A stretch of DNA of 43,339 nucleotides from Escherichia coli (GTDB lineage Bacteria > Pseudomonadota > Gammaproteobacteria > Enterobacterales > Enterobacteriaceae). Below, piece by piece: positions 32,559-41,751 of the stretch. The first letter of the stretch is position 1. Every line of letters starts with the position of its first letter. The position numbers and the translations under genes are program-made. Location of the stretch: assembly GCF_003334315.1 (NCBI RefSeq), contig NZ_QOWR01000042.1; one strand, written 5' to 3'. Under the pieces are notes generated by a model. That model made no database searches. It saw only the letters and a program-made list of their open reading frames with translations, and had not been told where the DNA came from.

Positions 32559-33941
32559 TCAACCTGCCACACTCCCCCACACCAGTTGCCCTTTATGGAA
32601 CGTTGCGGTTCTCGGCGAGATACGCGCCACCGCCTCGGCGGAACAGGAGGCGTCCACCAGCACAAAGCTGGCGTCATCCTGCGCTTTTGGCCATACACGC
32701 TCGCCTTTTTCATTCAGCGGCAATACATCGCCAGTGGCTAAAAACAGCGAGCGGGAGAGGTTCTGTTCGTTAGGACGAATATAGAGCTGCGCGTACAGAT
32801 TGGCTTTTTCCAGCATGTCGCCCAGACCATAAGGCGACCAGTGGTCGATAACGCTGTCAGTGCCAGTCATCACTTTTACGCCTTTGTCGTGCAACTGTTT
32901 GAGCGGCATATGCAGCGTGCCAATCGGCACCGTCGAGGCGATAGAAATTTGTTGCACCACCATCCGGTTCGCCAGTTCATCTACCTGTTGCTCGTTGAGC
33001 GTTGCCAGCGCAAAGGCGTGACTGATGGTCAGCTTGCCCTTCAGCTGTGGCGTTTTCTCTACCGTTTCAACCATATAATTGATGGCTGCCACGCCTGCCG
33101 GAGTGGTTTCGTGCAGGTGAATATCGACGCCTTTGTCGTAGTCCAGCGCAATCTGGAACATGGTGTCGAGGGATTTTTCCATCGCGCCATCAACACTGGT
33201 CGGGTCCAGGCCGCCGACGTAATGCGCCCCCGCCTGCATCGCTTCACGCATTAAAGGTTCAGATTTCGACAGCAGCAAACCGTGCTGCGGGAAGGCGACG
33301 ATTTCACACTCAAAGCCCGCCTGACGTCGCGCCAGCACCGCCTGCAAATTTTGCAGATTTTTCAGGCCGGAAACCGGTTCGATATTGCAGTGGCTGCGGG
33401 CAATGGTGGTGCCTTTCGACTGCAATAAATCAATCAGTTTTTCTGCCCGCTCCTGAGTGTACGGTTGCAGTTCCGGCAGCATTTTCTGCTCGAGTTTGAT
33501 CATGTCCTGGATGGTGGTGCCTGCCGGACGATTGAGCGAGCGCCACGGCCCGCCGTAAAAGGTTTTGTCGAGATGAATATGCATGTCGCGGGTGGTGGGC
33601 AGCATCAGCTTACCGCCAGCGTCATAGTGCGGCAGCGTGGCGTCCGGATGCAGCTTGTTCTCGCGCAGGGCGACAATTTTGCCGTCCTGAATCTCCACGG
33701 TCTGGCGCGCCGTGCGGGTCTGCACCGCCACGCCATTTTCGTAGTCAAAACCGGTTTCCAGCAGCACGTTATCGAGATAGTAATGCGGGTCAGTGATTTT
33801 CATGGTGTTGTTCGCTTCGCAGTTTAGGGTGCCAGCTACCGCCGCATGGGCGAGCGGCACAGAGGTACCAAACAGCGCGGCGGCGGTGACCATCTTACCG
33901 CTCTGGCTCAGAAATTCACGGCGGCTATTGCTTTCTTTCAT
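32559..33941 (-). CDS. yahJ: Tat-exported amidohydrolase (putative deaminase)
   Basis: 460-aa ORF with twin-arginine signal SRREFLSQSGKMVTAAALFGTSVPLAHA and metal-binding HIH (MHIHLD), the same family signature as codA. Confidence 0.85.
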   Translation of the reverse strand: MKESNSRREFLSQSGKMVTAAALFGTSVPLAHAAVAGTLNCEANNTMKITDPHYYLDNVLLETGFDYENGVAVQTRTARQTVEIQDGKIVALRENKLHPDATLPHYDAGGKLMLPTTRDMHIHLDKTFYGGPWRSLNRPAGTTIQDMIKLEQKMLPELQPYTQERAEKLIDLLQSKGTTIARSHCNIEPVSGLKNLQNLQAVLARRQAGFECEIVAFPQHGLLLSKSEPLMREAMQAGAHYVGGLDPTSVDGAMEKSLDTMFQIALDYDKGVDIHLHETTPAGVAAINYMVETVEKTPQLKGKLTISHAFALATLNEQQVDELANRMVVQQISIASTVPIGTLHMPLKQLHDKGVKVMTGTDSVIDHWSPYGLGDMLEKANLYAQLYIRPNEQNLSRSLFLATGDVLPLNEKGERVWPKAQDDASFVLVDASCSAEAVARISPRTATFHKGQLVWGSVAG

Positions 33942-33950
33942 CTTACGTCC

Positions 33951-34901
33951 TTACGTTTTAATAATATGAGTGCCCGTTTCGCCGCGCAGCGCCGCAGGCA
34001 GGCATTCCGGCGTGGTGATAATCACTTCTTTGCCGCCTTGTTCTAAAAATGTCAGGCTGGCGATGATTTTTGGCAACATGCTGCCGGGCGGGAAATGCCC
34101 TTCCTGCATATAGCGGGTCATGGTGGCAATATCCACCCGATCGAGCGCCTGCTGCTGCGGTTTGCCAAAGTGAATACACACTTTTTCGACGCCAGTGGTG
34201 ATCACAAGAATGTCGGCGTGAATTTCACGGGCCAGCAGCGCGGTAGAGAGATCTTTGTCGATAACCGCGTCCACGCTTTGGTAATCTCCCGCGTCAGTAC
34301 GCACTACCGGAATTCCACCGCCGCCCGCGCCAATTACGACAAAACCTTGTTGGATCAGCGCTTTAATGGCAGGTGCTTCGACAATACGTTTCGGTTCCGG
34401 CGAGGCGACCACGCGGCGATAGCCCCGCCCGGCATCTTCAACAAAACACCAGTCAGGGTTTGCCTTTTGTAATTCGTCACGCTGGCTGTCACTAAAGAAT
34501 GCGCCGATGGGCTTGGTGGGATGGGCAAAACCTGGATCGTTTTTATCCACTTCCACCTGAGTCACCACGGTGACGGCTTTCTTCTCGCCGTGACGCGCCA
34601 GCCGGTTATTCAGCGCCTGTTGGATCAGATAGCCGATGCCGCCCTGCGTATCTGCCACACAGTTCGCCAGCGGCGTTAAGGGCAGCCCTTCGCGCTCGTG
34701 GGCAATCTCCGCACGGCGTAAATCCAGCCCGACCTGCGGCCCGTTGCCGTGGGTCAGCACAATGTCGTAATCGGAAGCCAGCATTTCCAGCACCGTATCG
34801 GCGACGGCTTTCACCGCCTCCGCCTGATGCTCAATCGACTGGCTGGCGTTATCTTTGATAATGCTGTTGCCACCAATGGCAACGACCACAAGCTCTTTCA
34901 T
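33951..34901 (-). CDS. yahI: Carbamate kinase-like protein
   Basis: 316-aa amino-acid-kinase family ORF (N-terminal VVAIGGNSI); 9-bp gap to yahJ. Confidence 0.85.
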   Translation of the reverse strand: MKELVVVAIGGNSIIKDNASQSIEHQAEAVKAVADTVLEMLASDYDIVLTHGNGPQVGLDLRRAEIAHEREGLPLTPLANCVADTQGGIGYLIQQALNNRLARHGEKKAVTVVTQVEVDKNDPGFAHPTKPIGAFFSDSQRDELQKANPDWCFVEDAGRGYRRVVASPEPKRIVEAPAIKALIQQGFVVIGAGGGGIPVVRTDAGDYQSVDAVIDKDLSTALLAREIHADILVITTGVEKVCIHFGKPQQQALDRVDIATMTRYMQEGHFPPGSMLPKIIASLTFLEQGGKEVIITTPECLPAALRGETGTHIIKT

Positions 34902-34951
34902 GTTGTTATGTCCGCTACAGAGGGTGATGGGGTTATGACCAACGCCAGACT

Positions 34952-39972: not shown

Positions 39973-40229
39973 TCACATTCCCCTGGTTTTTGTGGCTGTT
40001 TTCGATGAATTGAGAATAGCAACGATAATCTGATAAAAGAACCCGCTTAAATTTAATTCGCCGTATCTCGCCTTTTTGTTGAATAATATTCAACAATCTT
40101 TTCGCAGTGTGCGGTAGTGCAATATTTGTTTCTTTGACCCGATACCCTTTCACTCAATCAGGTTTTATTTCTCTATAGTCTGCACATGTAAGAGTAGCTT
40201 TCGTCCATGTCTAACCAGAGGGGAACAAG

Positions 40230-40727
40230 ATGAACGGACTCACGGCAACGGGTGTCACCGTCGGTATTTGTGCAGGGCTTTGGCAGTTAGTGTCTTCACA
40301 TGTCGGGCTCTCTCAAGGATGGGAATTATTAGGAACCATTGGCTTCGTCGCCTTTTGCAGTTTTTATGCCGCAGGCGGCGGTAAATCGGGGTTTATCAGA
40401 AGTCTGGCGGTTAATTATTCCGGGATGGTGTGGGCGTTTTTCGCCGCGCTGACTGCTGGTTGGCTGGCCTCTGTAAGTGGACTGTCCGCGTTCTGGGCGA
40501 GCGTAATTACTACCGTACCCTTCTCGGCGGTAGTGGTCTGGCAAGGGCGTTTCTGGTTACTGTCCTTTATTCCCGGTGGCTTTCTCGGCATGACGCTGTT
40601 TTTTGCCAGCGGGATGAACTGGACGGTGACGTTACTGGGTTTTCTGGCGGGTAACTGCGTGGGGGTAATTTCAGAATATGGTGGACAAAAATTAAGCGAA
40701 GCGACGACTAAACGCGACGGGTATTAA
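40230..40727 (+). CDS. yahC: Inner-membrane protein of unknown function
   Basis: 165-aa ORF with about four hydrophobic segments; divergent from yahD. Confidence 0.75.
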   Translation: MNGLTATGVTVGICAGLWQLVSSHVGLSQGWELLGTIGFVAFCSFYAAGGGKSGFIRSLAVNYSGMVWAFFAALTAGWLASVSGLSAFWASVITTVPFSAVVVWQGRFWLLSFIPGGFLGMTLFFASGMNWTVTLLGFLAGNCVGVISEYGGQKLSEATTKRDGY

Positions 40728-40818
40728 AAGTTATTCAAAAATGATTATCTATCTTTAACCGATACCTCTACAGTCATAGCTGGAGAAATTCATAGTAGAT
40801 AATGGCGAGAATGGTTTA

Positions 40819-41751
40819 ATGAACTCAATTTTTACCGAAGAGAATCTGTTGGCATTTACTACCGCTGCGCGTTTTGGCAGCTTCAGTAAAGCCGCAGAAG
40901 AGTTGGGTTTAACCACTTCCGCCATTAGCTACACCATTAAGCGTATGGAGACGGGGCTGGATGTGGTGCTGTTCACTCGCAGTACCCGCAGCATTGAGTT
41001 AACGGAGTCCGGGCGTTATTTTTTCCGCAAAGCTACCGACCTGCTGAATGATTTTTATGCCATCAAACGCAGTATCGATACTATTTCGCAGGGCATAGAA
41101 GCGCGTGTGCGCATTTGTATTAATCAGCTGCTTTATACGCCCAAACACACCGCACGCTTGTTACAGGTGCTGAAAAAGCAGTTTCCTACCTGCCAGATTA
41201 CCGTCACCACCGAAGTGTATAACGGCGTCTGGGATGCGATTATTAATAATCAGGCCAATATCGCCATCGGCGCACCCGATACACTACTGGACGGCGGCGG
41301 TATTGATTACACTGAAATTGGCGCGATTCGCTGGGCTTTTGCTATCGCCCCGGATCACCCGTTAGCCTTTGTGCCGGAACCCATCGCCGAAAGCCAACTG
41401 CGTCTCTACCCTAATATTATGGTGGAGGACACCGCGCATACGATTAATAAAAAAGTGGGCTGGTTGCTGCACGGGCAGGAGTCAATTCTGGTGCCAGATT
41501 TCAACACCAAATGTCAGTGCCAGATTTTAGGTGAAGGAATTGGTTTTTTGCCGGATTACATGGTCCGTGAGGCGATGACGCAATCCCTGCTGGTTACCCG
41601 ACAAATCCATAATCCGCGCCAGGATTCGCGCATGTTACTGGCGACTCAGCATTCTGCTACGGGTCAGGTGACGCAGTGGATTAAAAAACAATTTGCGCCA
41701 AATGGCATATTAACGGGGATCTATCAGGATTTACTGCATCGGGAGAATTAA
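40819..41751 (+). CDS. yahB: LysR-family transcriptional regulator
   Basis: 310-aa ORF with N-terminal HTH FSKAAEELGLTTSAISYTIKRME. Confidence 0.8.
   Translation: MNSIFTEENLLAFTTAARFGSFSKAAEELGLTTSAISYTIKRMETGLDVVLFTRSTRSIELTESGRYFFRKATDLLNDFYAIKRSIDTISQGIEARVRICINQLLYTPKHTARLLQVLKKQFPTCQITVTTEVYNGVWDAIINNQANIAIGAPDTLLDGGGIDYTEIGAIRWAFAIAPDHPLAFVPEPIAESQLRLYPNIMVEDTAHTINKKVGWLLHGQESILVPDFNTKCQCQILGEGIGFLPDYMVREAMTQSLLVTRQIHNPRQDSRMLLATQHSATGQVTQWIKKQFAPNGILTGIYQDLLHREN

Follow-up and report, generated by a model that had tools for sequence, protein, structure and literature searches.

In the 43,339-nt stretch of DNA analyzed here (the window; Escherichia coli contig NZ_QOWR01000042.1), positions 32559-41751 carry the yahB-yahJ genes, and we found that this cluster is an intact, selection-maintained relative of the allFGHK gene set of the allantoin pathway. 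It is not a new kind of system but a distinct, widespread and very conserved variant of AllFGH/AllK with added parts. The observations comprise its gene content, its homology, the selection acting on its genes, a conserved architecture and a conserved candidate operator. With moderate confidence, we consider that the genes form a working catabolic unit of the allFGHK kind, in which an acyl-urea would be split by phosphorolysis with a gain of ATP, YahJ would serve as a feeder enzyme and YahB as the activator. An earlier interpretation made from the letters alone (the sequence-only reading) had proposed a carbamoyl-transfer pathway of this type, and it is supported as far as sequence reaches. 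Beyond it, we found that the cluster is modular, that E. coli carries an alternative membrane protein, and that related clusters are accompanied by feeder enzymes of the triazine/biuret type.

The window is a segment of the E. coli chromosome in reversed orientation relative to K-12. When compared with complete E. coli genomes, the 9.2-kb region was 99.9% identical, and it was found at 80% coverage or more in 4929 of 5426 of them. It contains eight intact open reading frames (ORFs) whose lengths agree with the RefSeq annotation, which bears out the description of a compact eight-gene module with divergent yahC and yahB. The features are the following.

yahJ, 32559-33941, minus strand: 460 aa; predicted twin-arginine translocation (Tat)-exported mononuclear-metal amidohydrolase of the CodA/AtzC branch
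YahJ twin-arginine signal peptide, 33843-33941, minus strand: residues 1-33, SRREFL ... AHA/A, read from the translation
yahI, 33951-34901, minus strand: 316 aa; carbamate kinase family
Repetitive extragenic palindromic (REP)/bacterial interspersed mosaic element (BIME) array, annotated "yahH", 34951-35496, no strand: yahG-yahI spacer, from Tandem Repeats Finder (TRF) and Rfam
yahG, 35509-36927, minus strand: 472 aa; AllG/DUF1116 subunit
YahG N-terminal module, 36772-36906, minus strand: residues 8-52, homologous to the AllF/FdrA C-terminal tail
yahF, 36927-38474, minus strand: 515 aa; FdrA/AllF-like, with a CoA-binding fold like that of the succinyl-CoA synthetase (SCS) alpha chain
yahE, 38464-39327, minus strand: 287 aa, GTG start; AllH/DUF2877 subunit
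yahD, 39367-39972, minus strand: 201 aa; cytoplasmic ankyrin-repeat protein, first gene of the operon
Dyad TTGTTGAATAtTATTCAACAA, 40076-40096, no strand: candidate YahB operator (LysR T-N11-A) in the yahC-yahD intergenic region, read from the sequence
yahC, 40230-40727, plus strand: 165 aa; DUF1097 inner-membrane protein, divergent from yahD
yahB, 40819-41751, plus strand: 310 aa; LysR-type regulator

The sequence-only reading had described yahD through yahG as translationally coupled. The 11-bp overlap of yahE and yahF, the 1-nt overlap of yahF and yahG and the 9-bp spacing of yahI and yahJ are as it stated; as a correction, yahD and yahE do not overlap, being 39 bp apart. Profile searches agreed with its family labels (ankyrin, DUF2877, FdrA-like, DUF1116, carbamate-kinase-like, amidohydrolase and LysR). 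No genes of the allantoin (all) operon lie within the window.

We retrieved the K-12 allantoin region as the source of FdrA, YlbE, YlbF and YbcF for pairwise comparison. YahF is 38% identical to FdrA (AllF; 2e-101), YahG 45% to YlbE (AllG; 5e-120), YahE 25% to YlbF (AllH; 2e-10) and YahI 38% to YbcF (AllK; 2e-57); YahI is nearer to YqeA than to AllK (46%, 1e-89). Paralogy of these four genes with ylbF, fdrA, ylbE and ybcF had been put forward by the sequence-only reading, with a lack of homology named as the outcome that would count against the interpretation. Because all four matches are significant (2e-10 to 5e-120, at 25-45% identity), the paralogy is real. The domain content is in keeping with these assignments: YahE matches Pfam AllH/DUF2877 (PF11392) at 2.5e-28 and YahG matches AllG/DUF1116 (PF06545) at 6.9e-89, while YahF scores 487.7 bits against the NCBIfam FdrA subfamily model (cutoff 433) and contains the Pfam domains CoA_binding and Ligase_CoA. 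Taking an AllFGH-type gene set to be adjacent genes for FdrA/AllF (HMA_AllF_N, CoA_binding, Ligase_CoA), AllG (PF06545) and AllH (PF11392), yahE-yahF-yahG is such a set. YahI scores 650 against the carbamate kinase subfamily model PRK12352 (cutoff 266) and 346.3 bits against the arcC equivalog TIGR00746, just under the cutoff of 358.25. Among solved structures, YahF matches PDB 3dmy (4.9e-82) and, over the CoA-binding fold, SCS alpha chains (1e-16 to 1e-5), and YahG is about 72% identical to PDB 3clq.

The boundary between the F and G genes is not the same in the two operons. Residues 8-52 of YahG match positions 509-553 of the NCBIfam FdrA model (1.6e-4), and by BLASTP residues 12-53 align with FdrA 513-554 (1e-4); the F and G proteins are 515 and 472 aa long in the yah cluster vs. 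555 and 419 aa in the all operon. Since the N-terminus of YahG resembles the C-terminal tail of FdrA, the gene boundary falls on opposite sides of one module in yah and all. The order H-F-G (AllH-, AllF- and AllG-type genes) is found in yah and in two other plasmid-borne subfamilies, whose F proteins have 516-519 aa and G proteins 473-474 aa, so that the all operon is the odd one out both by gene order and by the F/G module boundary.

The biochemistry of the all enzymes gives this homology its meaning. When the sequence-only reading stated that the allantoin-region proteins had been proposed to form an oxamate carbamoyltransferase and a carbamate kinase, it was describing what has since been shown biochemically (PMC11326118, PMC9843812). 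According to PMC11326118, purified AllF-AllG-AllH has oxamic transcarbamylase activity (Kim & Kim), allF, allG and allH are each required for oxamate formation, the enzyme is unrelated to transcarbamylases of the ornithine transcarbamylase (OTC) fold, CoA is not needed, and oxamate and carbamoyl phosphate are produced in vivo. YbcF/AllK is a catabolic carbamate kinase (PMC9843812). Neither PMC11326118 nor PMC9843812 mentions the yah genes. Our literature searches returned no functional study of any yah gene and no published yah substrate or inducer, as the sequence-only reading had also said; in a y-ome survey of 2024, yahC, E, G, H, I and J are entered as uncharacterised genes clustered at a repeat site (PMC11551758).

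Purifying selection acts on all eight genes. When E. coli was compared with E. albertii, Kluyvera and Raoultella, the ratio of nonsynonymous to synonymous substitution rates (dN/dS) was 0.02-0.29, with yahG (0.02-0.04) the most constrained gene of the cluster, yahB at 0.02-0.03, yahC at 0.06-0.12 and the highest values in yahE, the fastest-evolving gene. These ratios indicate that no yah gene is a pseudogene and that the cluster is maintained rather than decaying; together with the full-length ORFs, they dispose of the pseudogenisation that had been named earlier as a possible objection. Between E. coli and E. albertii, dS is 0.15-0.19 for yahE, F and G and 0.67-0.73 for yahC and yahB, a contrast that suggests recombination or separate histories within the cluster.

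To describe the distribution of the cluster, we scanned one genome per species with two YahG motifs and found a yah-type G gene in approximately 467 species. Architectures were tabulated by tblastn for the best 80 of these 467 (Enterobacterales or Aeromonas) together with earlier loci, and the architecture counts given below refer to this set. More than 70 species representatives have the order D-(E)-F-G-(permease)-I-J, in which 9-30 bp separate I from J. The carbamate kinase belongs to the same operon: yahI lies downstream of yahG in at least 80 loci, the E. coli pair being split by the BIME array. YahG is 77-89% identical to its counterparts in Brevibacillus (77%), Janthinobacterium (79%), Aeromonas and Serratia. 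Further afield, shorter versions occur. Janthinobacterium has Ank-H-F-G-permease-CK-LysR (Ank, ankyrin; CK, carbamate kinase) with no deaminase, and LysR / Ank-DUF2877-FdrA-DUF1116-permease-CK, without yahJ and flanked by insertion sequences, is present in about 68 records of conjugative IncF plasmids from E. coli and Klebsiella (for example L098 4638-13071 and L012 4107-12540). The plasmid G protein is 90% identical to that of the chromosomal gene, and the plasmid cluster is a second copy, of the permease type; in one assembly it adjoins aerobactin genes. Such minimal clusters, consisting of Ank-H-F-G-permease-CK and a regulator, suggest that the imported compound would itself be the carbamoyl donor. 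Brevibacillus has PucR / Ank-H-F-G-NCS1 permease-CK-deaminase-permease, where the 152-aa deaminase has the cytidine deaminase (CDA) fold and occupies the place of YahJ, which suggests that the deaminase step may be filled by unrelated folds. More distant DUF1116 proteins (about 36% identity) were seen on a Methylocystis plasmid (L102 8968-13592), in an MSMEG_0565-0572/Sll0783 nitrogen-starvation cluster with an FdrA-like "oxidoreductase", and on a Rhodococcus plasmid (L101 8947-10236), among short-chain dehydrogenase/reductase and glutamine-synthetase-like genes.

The membrane protein of the cluster exists in two alternative forms. In 65 loci, with the order yahB(-) / yahD-(yahE)-yahF-yahG-permease-yahI-yahJ, a 516-aa membrane protein is encoded between G and I, where the gap is 1565-2240 bp; in 18 loci, from Escherichia, Pseudocitrobacter, Kluyvera, Citrobacter amalonaticus, Raoultella, some Klebsiella and one Enterobacter, there is no permease, the G-I spacer is 89-319 bp and yahC lies between yahB and yahD. 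The two were never found together among the tabulated loci (none of the 18 yahC loci has the permease, none of the 65 permease loci has yahC). The YahC translation is hydrophobic throughout, and Pfam DUF1097 is matched by the Raoultella orthologue. The 516-aa permease gave no Pfam, NCBIfam or PDB sequence match, as a single sequence or as a profile; its source annotations are "xanthine permease" or "AGZA family", and comparisons with GhxQ and XanQ by BLASTP and hhalign were weak (GhxQ by hhalign: E 0.003, probability 10%). Its AlphaFold2 model, of low confidence (pLDDT 60.8), shows two helical segments with short strands within them, and Foldseek matched this model only to proteins of the 7+7 UraA fold, SLC26 anion carriers being mixed with UraA, SVCT1 and AZG2. 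As the model is poor, we place the permease in the UraA-fold superfamily at superfamily level only.

In E. coli, the position that the permease occupies in most relatives is taken exactly by the BIME array at 34951-35496. The array is present as the sequence-only reading had it, with a period of 93, 5.9 copies and 95% matches by TRF, and it gives five matches of 72-78 bits to Rfam naRNA4, all above the gathering score; the closest complete genomes have two units (186 bp) fewer than the window. We considered whether the array was left behind when a decaying operon lost its permease, and dropped this idea because the permease-less form always comes with yahC, is common to several genera and is under purifying selection.

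The last gene, yahJ, encodes an amidohydrolase that scores 712.7 against NCBIfam PRK06846 (cutoff 447) and only 67-101 bits against cytosine deaminase models with cutoffs of 403-483, so that YahJ does not reach equivalog-level similarity to CodA or AtzC and falls only within the PRK06846 subfamily. Its nearest solved structures are AtzC (6nbo, 1.9e-43; 2qt3, 4e-30) and, next, CodA; alignment gave 23% identity to both, and tblastn gave 29% to AtzC. The metal ligands and catalytic residues of CodA are matched in the alignment by H121 and H123 (HxH), H275, E278, H308 and D362. The N-terminus, MKESNSRREFLSQSGKMVTAAALFGTSVPLAHA, consists of a twin-arginine motif, a hydrophobic stretch and an AxA cleavage site, in agreement with the Tat signal noted previously, and the RRxFL motif with the N-terminal extension of about 57 aa is kept in all seven YahJ orthologues aligned and absent from AtzC and CodA. 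YahJ appears in a published table of Tat substrates with the function "unknown", and the same study reported a small competitive defect for a yahJ deletion in a mouse model of extraintestinal pathogenic E. coli (competitive index 0.70, p=0.02; PMC7549933). Some E. coli assemblies encode a carbamate kinase-YahJ fusion of 677-780 aa (proteins P0003-P0005 and P0008), which probably arose when yahI lost its stop codon and reading continued through the 9-bp spacer.

The relationship with AtzC extends to its genomic context. On seven atrazine plasmids (pADP-1, pTC1 and five more) a carbamate kinase gene stands ahead of atzC, and most of the seven, pTC1 among them, have further upstream the C-terminal part of a DUF1116/AllG gene (pTC1 stretch L103 8986-11782; pADP-1 stretch L105 6361-8589). 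The cassette is at least 99.4% identical between plasmids whose hosts are Pseudomonas, Paenarthrobacter, Arthrobacter, Agrobacterium and Aminobacter, although the pADP-1 match covers only 89% of it, and its order G-CK-amidohydrolase is that of yahG-yahI-yahJ. We considered the fragment as a yah-type gene and abandoned this, as an identity matrix placed it about equally far from every subfamily (55-62%); it therefore points to an H-F-G-CK operon of a separate type rather than to a yah operon in particular. Given the kinase gene and the fragment upstream, atzC looks to have been recruited from an H-F-G-CK operon. Our literature search found no paper naming atzC together with a carbamate kinase.

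YahD is the only protein that goes with both halves of the cluster: it accompanies YahJ alone in Erwinia and Pragia, and E-F-G-permease-CK without YahJ in Janthinobacterium and on the IncF plasmids. It has ankyrin matches (PDB 5d66, 2.3e-40; 3hra, 3.6e-30), and no signal peptide was seen in its translation. YahB orthologues, at 69-99% identity, occur with nearly all related clusters. The best NCBIfam models for YahB, AllS (267 bits, cutoff 372) and PunR (238 bits, cutoff 345), are both under cutoff, and YahB is by sequence best regarded as a paralogue of AllS, not AllS itself. The intergenic dyad at 40076-40096 is perfect, fits a LysR T-N11-A site, and is the candidate site for YahB. Its arms, TTRTTRAA-N5-TTCAAYAA, are kept with at most 3 of 16 mismatches in 81 of 86 loci, compared to 7 of 1720 shuffled controls, and they are fixed while the central bases vary. 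In most loci the dyad lies at approximately -118 to -135 from yahD, reaching -200 in Providencia and a few others; it is also found in Erwinia and Pragia, with their LysR-Ank-YahJ clusters, and it was not found in Brevibacillus, whose regulator is of the PucR type. Scanning for promoters and terminators revealed no consensus sigma-70 promoter on the coding strand and no excess over shuffles, as expected because the operon would be activator-dependent. For one candidate transcription factor (list 4), the supplement of a chromatin immunoprecipitation-exonuclease (ChIP-exo) study reports a strong yahC site at K-12 334131-334162, inside or near yahC, with a signal/noise of 55.9, among approximately 50 sites genome-wide (PMC8464067).

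Related clusters point to the class of substrate. Searching plasmids with YahG by tblastn, we identified two further H-F-G-CK subfamilies, whose G proteins are each about 47% identical to YahG and AllG and 78% to each other. In one, the genes ahead of the module encode a ring-opening amidohydrolase, from the cyanuric acid hydrolase/barbiturase family, and an NCS2 permease. The other has a cysteine hydrolase of the biuret-hydrolase/RutB fold upstream and an NCS1 permease downstream, and is the cluster described in avian pathogenic E. coli BEN2908 (PMC12928451). In comammox and archaeal nitrifiers, allFGHK-like genes adjoin biuret/triuret hydrolase genes (biuH/trtA; PMC12625717), and the all-type cluster carries allBCDE. 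Overall, H-F-G-CK modules are found attached to makers of acyl-ureas, which are oxalurate when allantoin is the source, carboxybiuret or ureidomalonate when a ring is opened, and allophanate when biuret is broken down. On the strength of these feeder-enzyme neighbourhoods we propose that the yah substrate may also be an acyl-urea.

We infer the reaction, its direction, the order of the steps and the roles of YahC and YahD as follows. YahE, YahF and YahG would form a cytoplasmic carbamoyltransferase of non-OTC fold which, with phosphate, would split an acyl-urea-type compound R-CO-NH-CO-NH2 (as are oxalurate, biuret, allophanate and ureidomalonate) into carbamoyl phosphate and the de-carbamoylated product, the substrate presumably being other than oxalurate. 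YahI would transfer the phosphate to ADP, yielding ATP, NH3 and CO2. Exported by Tat, YahJ may deaminate or dealkylaminate an external amino- or alkylamino-heterocycle or an amidino compound, freeing ammonia and, in full clusters, giving an oxo or ureido compound that would then be imported. Most species would use the UraA-fold permease of 516 aa for this uptake, and the Escherichia/Kluyvera/Raoultella version would use YahC. With inducer present, YahB would switch on the yahD operon by way of the conserved dyad, and YahD would be a conserved partner, possibly an adaptor or chaperone. The overall logic would copy that of the arginine and agmatine deiminase pathways with unrelated enzymes.

Several findings weigh against this catabolic scheme. 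YahF does not keep the phospho-histidine of SCS: at the aligned position of the GHAG loop we found a gap and non-conserved residues, which means that the chemistry is not simply readable from SCS and makes the database name "acyl-CoA synthetase" untrustworthy. Although allH is needed for AllFGH function, yahE is cleanly absent from 26 loci, including those of Enterobacter, Leclercia, Lelliottia, Silvania, Huaxiibacter and Aeromonas (L045-L072, L003/L088), and is thus dispensable in some lineages; at these loci the gap between yahD and yahF is 109-513 bp; a GC-rich hairpin follows yahD in each of five Enterobacter gaps that we read. Erwinia and Pragia have only the LysR, ankyrin and YahJ genes, and YahJ stands alone in Xenorhabdus and Shewanella (77-82% identity), so that it may have a separate function and be merely nested in the operon. 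A periplasmic YahJ is awkward beside cytoplasmic enzymes, and the yah cluster contains no ring-opening enzyme, meaning that a heterocyclic YahJ product could feed YahEFG only by opening spontaneously. For YahB, the PMC8464067 supplement lists three weak ChIP-exo sites elsewhere and none at the locus in glucose medium. Finally, the yahC-type clusters are one clade (G proteins 94-99% identical), so the mutual exclusion of yahC and the permease is essentially one evolutionary swap, which suggests functional replacement but does not prove it.

The main rival to acyl-urea phosphorolysis fed by YahJ is that YahEFG is a second oxamate carbamoyltransferase for exogenous oxalurate (or for parabanate, which hydrolyses to oxalurate) and that YahJ is unrelated to the flux, which we hold to be rather unlikely. 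PDB 3clq, which we take to be from Enterococcus faecalis, falls within the yah clade, being 68-73% identical to yah-type G proteins and 45% identical to AllG, and its type of locus reads PucR / AllH-AllF-AllG-membrane protein. At the 3clq-identical locus the membrane protein is a multi-pass protein of 393 aa with no Pfam family, and there is no adjacent ankyrin gene or carbamate kinase; for that reason we did not assign the yah clade to the classical oxalurate pathway of Enterococcus. In the assembly with the 3clq-identical protein (L095 9751-11155), a frameshift splits the AllG gene into ORFs of 77 and 384 aa. The classical oxalurate-inducible activity of Streptococcus (Enterococcus) faecalis, an inducible oxamate transcarbamylase with a dedicated carbamate kinase, is covered by papers from 1965 and 1986 cited in PMC6022934, and speaks for this rival, as do the minimal clusters, in which a transporter, H-F-G and CK suffice, the permease model, whose matches to SLC26-type anion carriers are no worse than those to nucleobase carriers, and the resemblance of YahB to AllS. 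However, AllG and YahG are only 45% identical in one genome while each is strongly conserved in its own clade, a pattern that usually marks different specificities, and deletion of allF, allG or allH stopped oxamate formation despite the presence of the yah genes (PMC11326118), which were perhaps unexpressed. A different possibility, to which we give little credence, is that two unrelated functions are interleaved, with YahB-YahD-YahJ a periplasmic nitrogen-scavenging or detoxifying deaminase and E-F-G-(permease)-I a mobile cassette inserted between yahD and yahJ. Each half is indeed found without the other (LysR, Ank and YahJ in Erwinia and Pragia, and YahJ by itself in Xenorhabdus and Shewanella; Ank-E-F-G-permease-CK on IncF plasmids and in Janthinobacterium), and the lower dS of yahE-G than of yahB/C between E. 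coli and E. albertii hints at separate histories. Such an insertion is hard to square with a full D-to-J order in more than 70 species representatives and 9-30 bp between I and J, with a deaminase of different fold in the same Brevibacillus neighbourhood, with the G-CK-amidohydrolase order retained by the atzC cassette, or with the presence of YahD alongside both halves.

Two further explanations concern the direction of the reaction and the state of the operon in E. coli. That a metabolite is carbamoylated from carbamoyl phosphate, or that YahF makes CoA esters as an acyl-CoA synthetase, seems to us very improbable: the RefSeq name of YahF ("acyl-CoA synthetase FdrA") and its CoA_binding and Ligase_CoA domains would be in keeping with the latter, and the AllFGH assay of PMC11326118 ran in the carbamoylating direction, but the name is older than the biochemistry, AllFGH is CoA-independent according to the same paper, the SCS catalytic histidine loop is missing from YahF, and a carbamate kinase of catabolic type is always adjacent, with no biosynthetic neighbours. 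Nor do we find it credible that the E. coli cluster is a decaying, cryptic remnant whose permease was lost to the REP array. Eight full-length ORFs with dN/dS of 0.02-0.29, a permease-less form that always has yahC and is common to Escherichia, Pseudocitrobacter, Kluyvera, Raoultella and some Klebsiella/Citrobacter, and the competitive defect of the yahJ deletion (competitive index 0.70, p=0.02; PMC7549933) all argue against decay, even though the BIME array sits at the permease position, the coding strand has no sigma-70 consensus, approximately 9% of complete E. coli genomes do not have 80% or more of the region, and no phenotype or inducer is known.

Taken more broadly, and quite tentatively, H-F-G with a carbamate kinase may be a general, modular "acyl-urea phosphorylase" system that conserves ATP, of which yah would be the most conserved branch (approximately 467 species), acting on a still unrecognised metabolite, with YahD as an obligatory partner, YahC as a new kind of small transporter standing in for the UraA-fold permease, and atzC recruited from such an operon into atrazine catabolism. 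ATP would then be obtained from compounds of the biuret, allophanate, ureidomalonate and oxalurate types, derived from triazines, pyrimidines and oxidised purines, in place of the known, purely hydrolytic routes. If the phosphorolytic reading holds, breakdown of ureides, biuret or triazines in gut and soil bacteria would give ATP and not just nitrogen, with a bearing on anaerobic purine and uric-acid turnover in the gut, fertiliser additives, triazine herbicides and the nitrogen sources of nitrifiers. A function open to test would be assigned to eight E. coli y-genes, and the non-OTC carbamoyltransferase would broaden into a family acting on several classes of substrate. The cluster can be tested directly through the new leads: the alternation of yahC with the permease, the candidate operator, the recurring feeder enzymes and the connection with atzC. 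Further work can start from a conserved candidate site for YahB, a possible role for DUF1097, a limited set of compounds to consider as substrates and a proposed evolutionary source of the atzC cassette.

The rest of the window (1-32200) is a standard E. coli neighbourhood with the mhp, lacIZYA, cynXSTR, codAB and prp genes. In the window ORFs and a matching genome, yahK adjoins the yah cluster; the cyanate (carbamate-forming) operon and the cytosine deaminase/permease pair lie approximately 14-18 kb from it.

Four known systems can be set beside the yah cluster. With allFGHK (Kim & Kim 2022, 2024) it shares the same three protein families and an adjacent carbamate kinase, all pairs being similar at 25-45% identity, and in both an AllS-type LysR regulator is nearby. 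The two differ in gene order, H-F-G-(gap)-K in yah vs. F-G-H-K in all, and in the position of the module of approximately 45 aa, which is at the N-terminus of G in yah and at the C-terminus of the 555-aa F in all. Moreover, yah has no allantoin genes nearby (no linkage to allBCDE), its G subunit is far more conserved across phyla, and it adds an ankyrin protein, an amidohydrolase with a Tat signal and a DUF1097 membrane protein. The ygeW-yqeA cluster for purine/urate fermentation contains the carbamate kinase paralogue YqeA, 46% identical to YahI, beside a carbamoyltransferase, amidohydrolases (SsnA, HyuA) and nucleobase permeases; however, the YgeW transcarbamylase is of the OTC fold, and no AllF/G/H-type protein, ankyrin protein or Tat enzyme is found there. 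The lower s-triazine pathway (AtzC, AtzD/TrzD, BiuH) includes AtzC, the nearest solved relative of YahJ, and its other enzymes have counterparts in the sister H-F-G-CK clusters that carry an AtzD/barbiturase-family or BiuH/RutB-fold gene. YahJ nevertheless shares only 23-29% identity with AtzC and differs from it by its Tat signal, the E. coli yah cluster has no ring-opening enzyme, and the known route ends in hydrolytic, not phosphorolytic, cleavage of allophanate. The arginine and agmatine deiminase pathways would offer a parallel in logic, with conversion of an amidino or amino group to a ureido or oxo group, phosphorolysis to carbamoyl phosphate and formation of ATP by carbamate kinase, while the putative yah transcarbamylase is not of the OTC fold, its deaminase belongs to the amidohydrolase superfamily and is predicted to be periplasmic, and an ArcD-type antiporter has no counterpart in the cluster.

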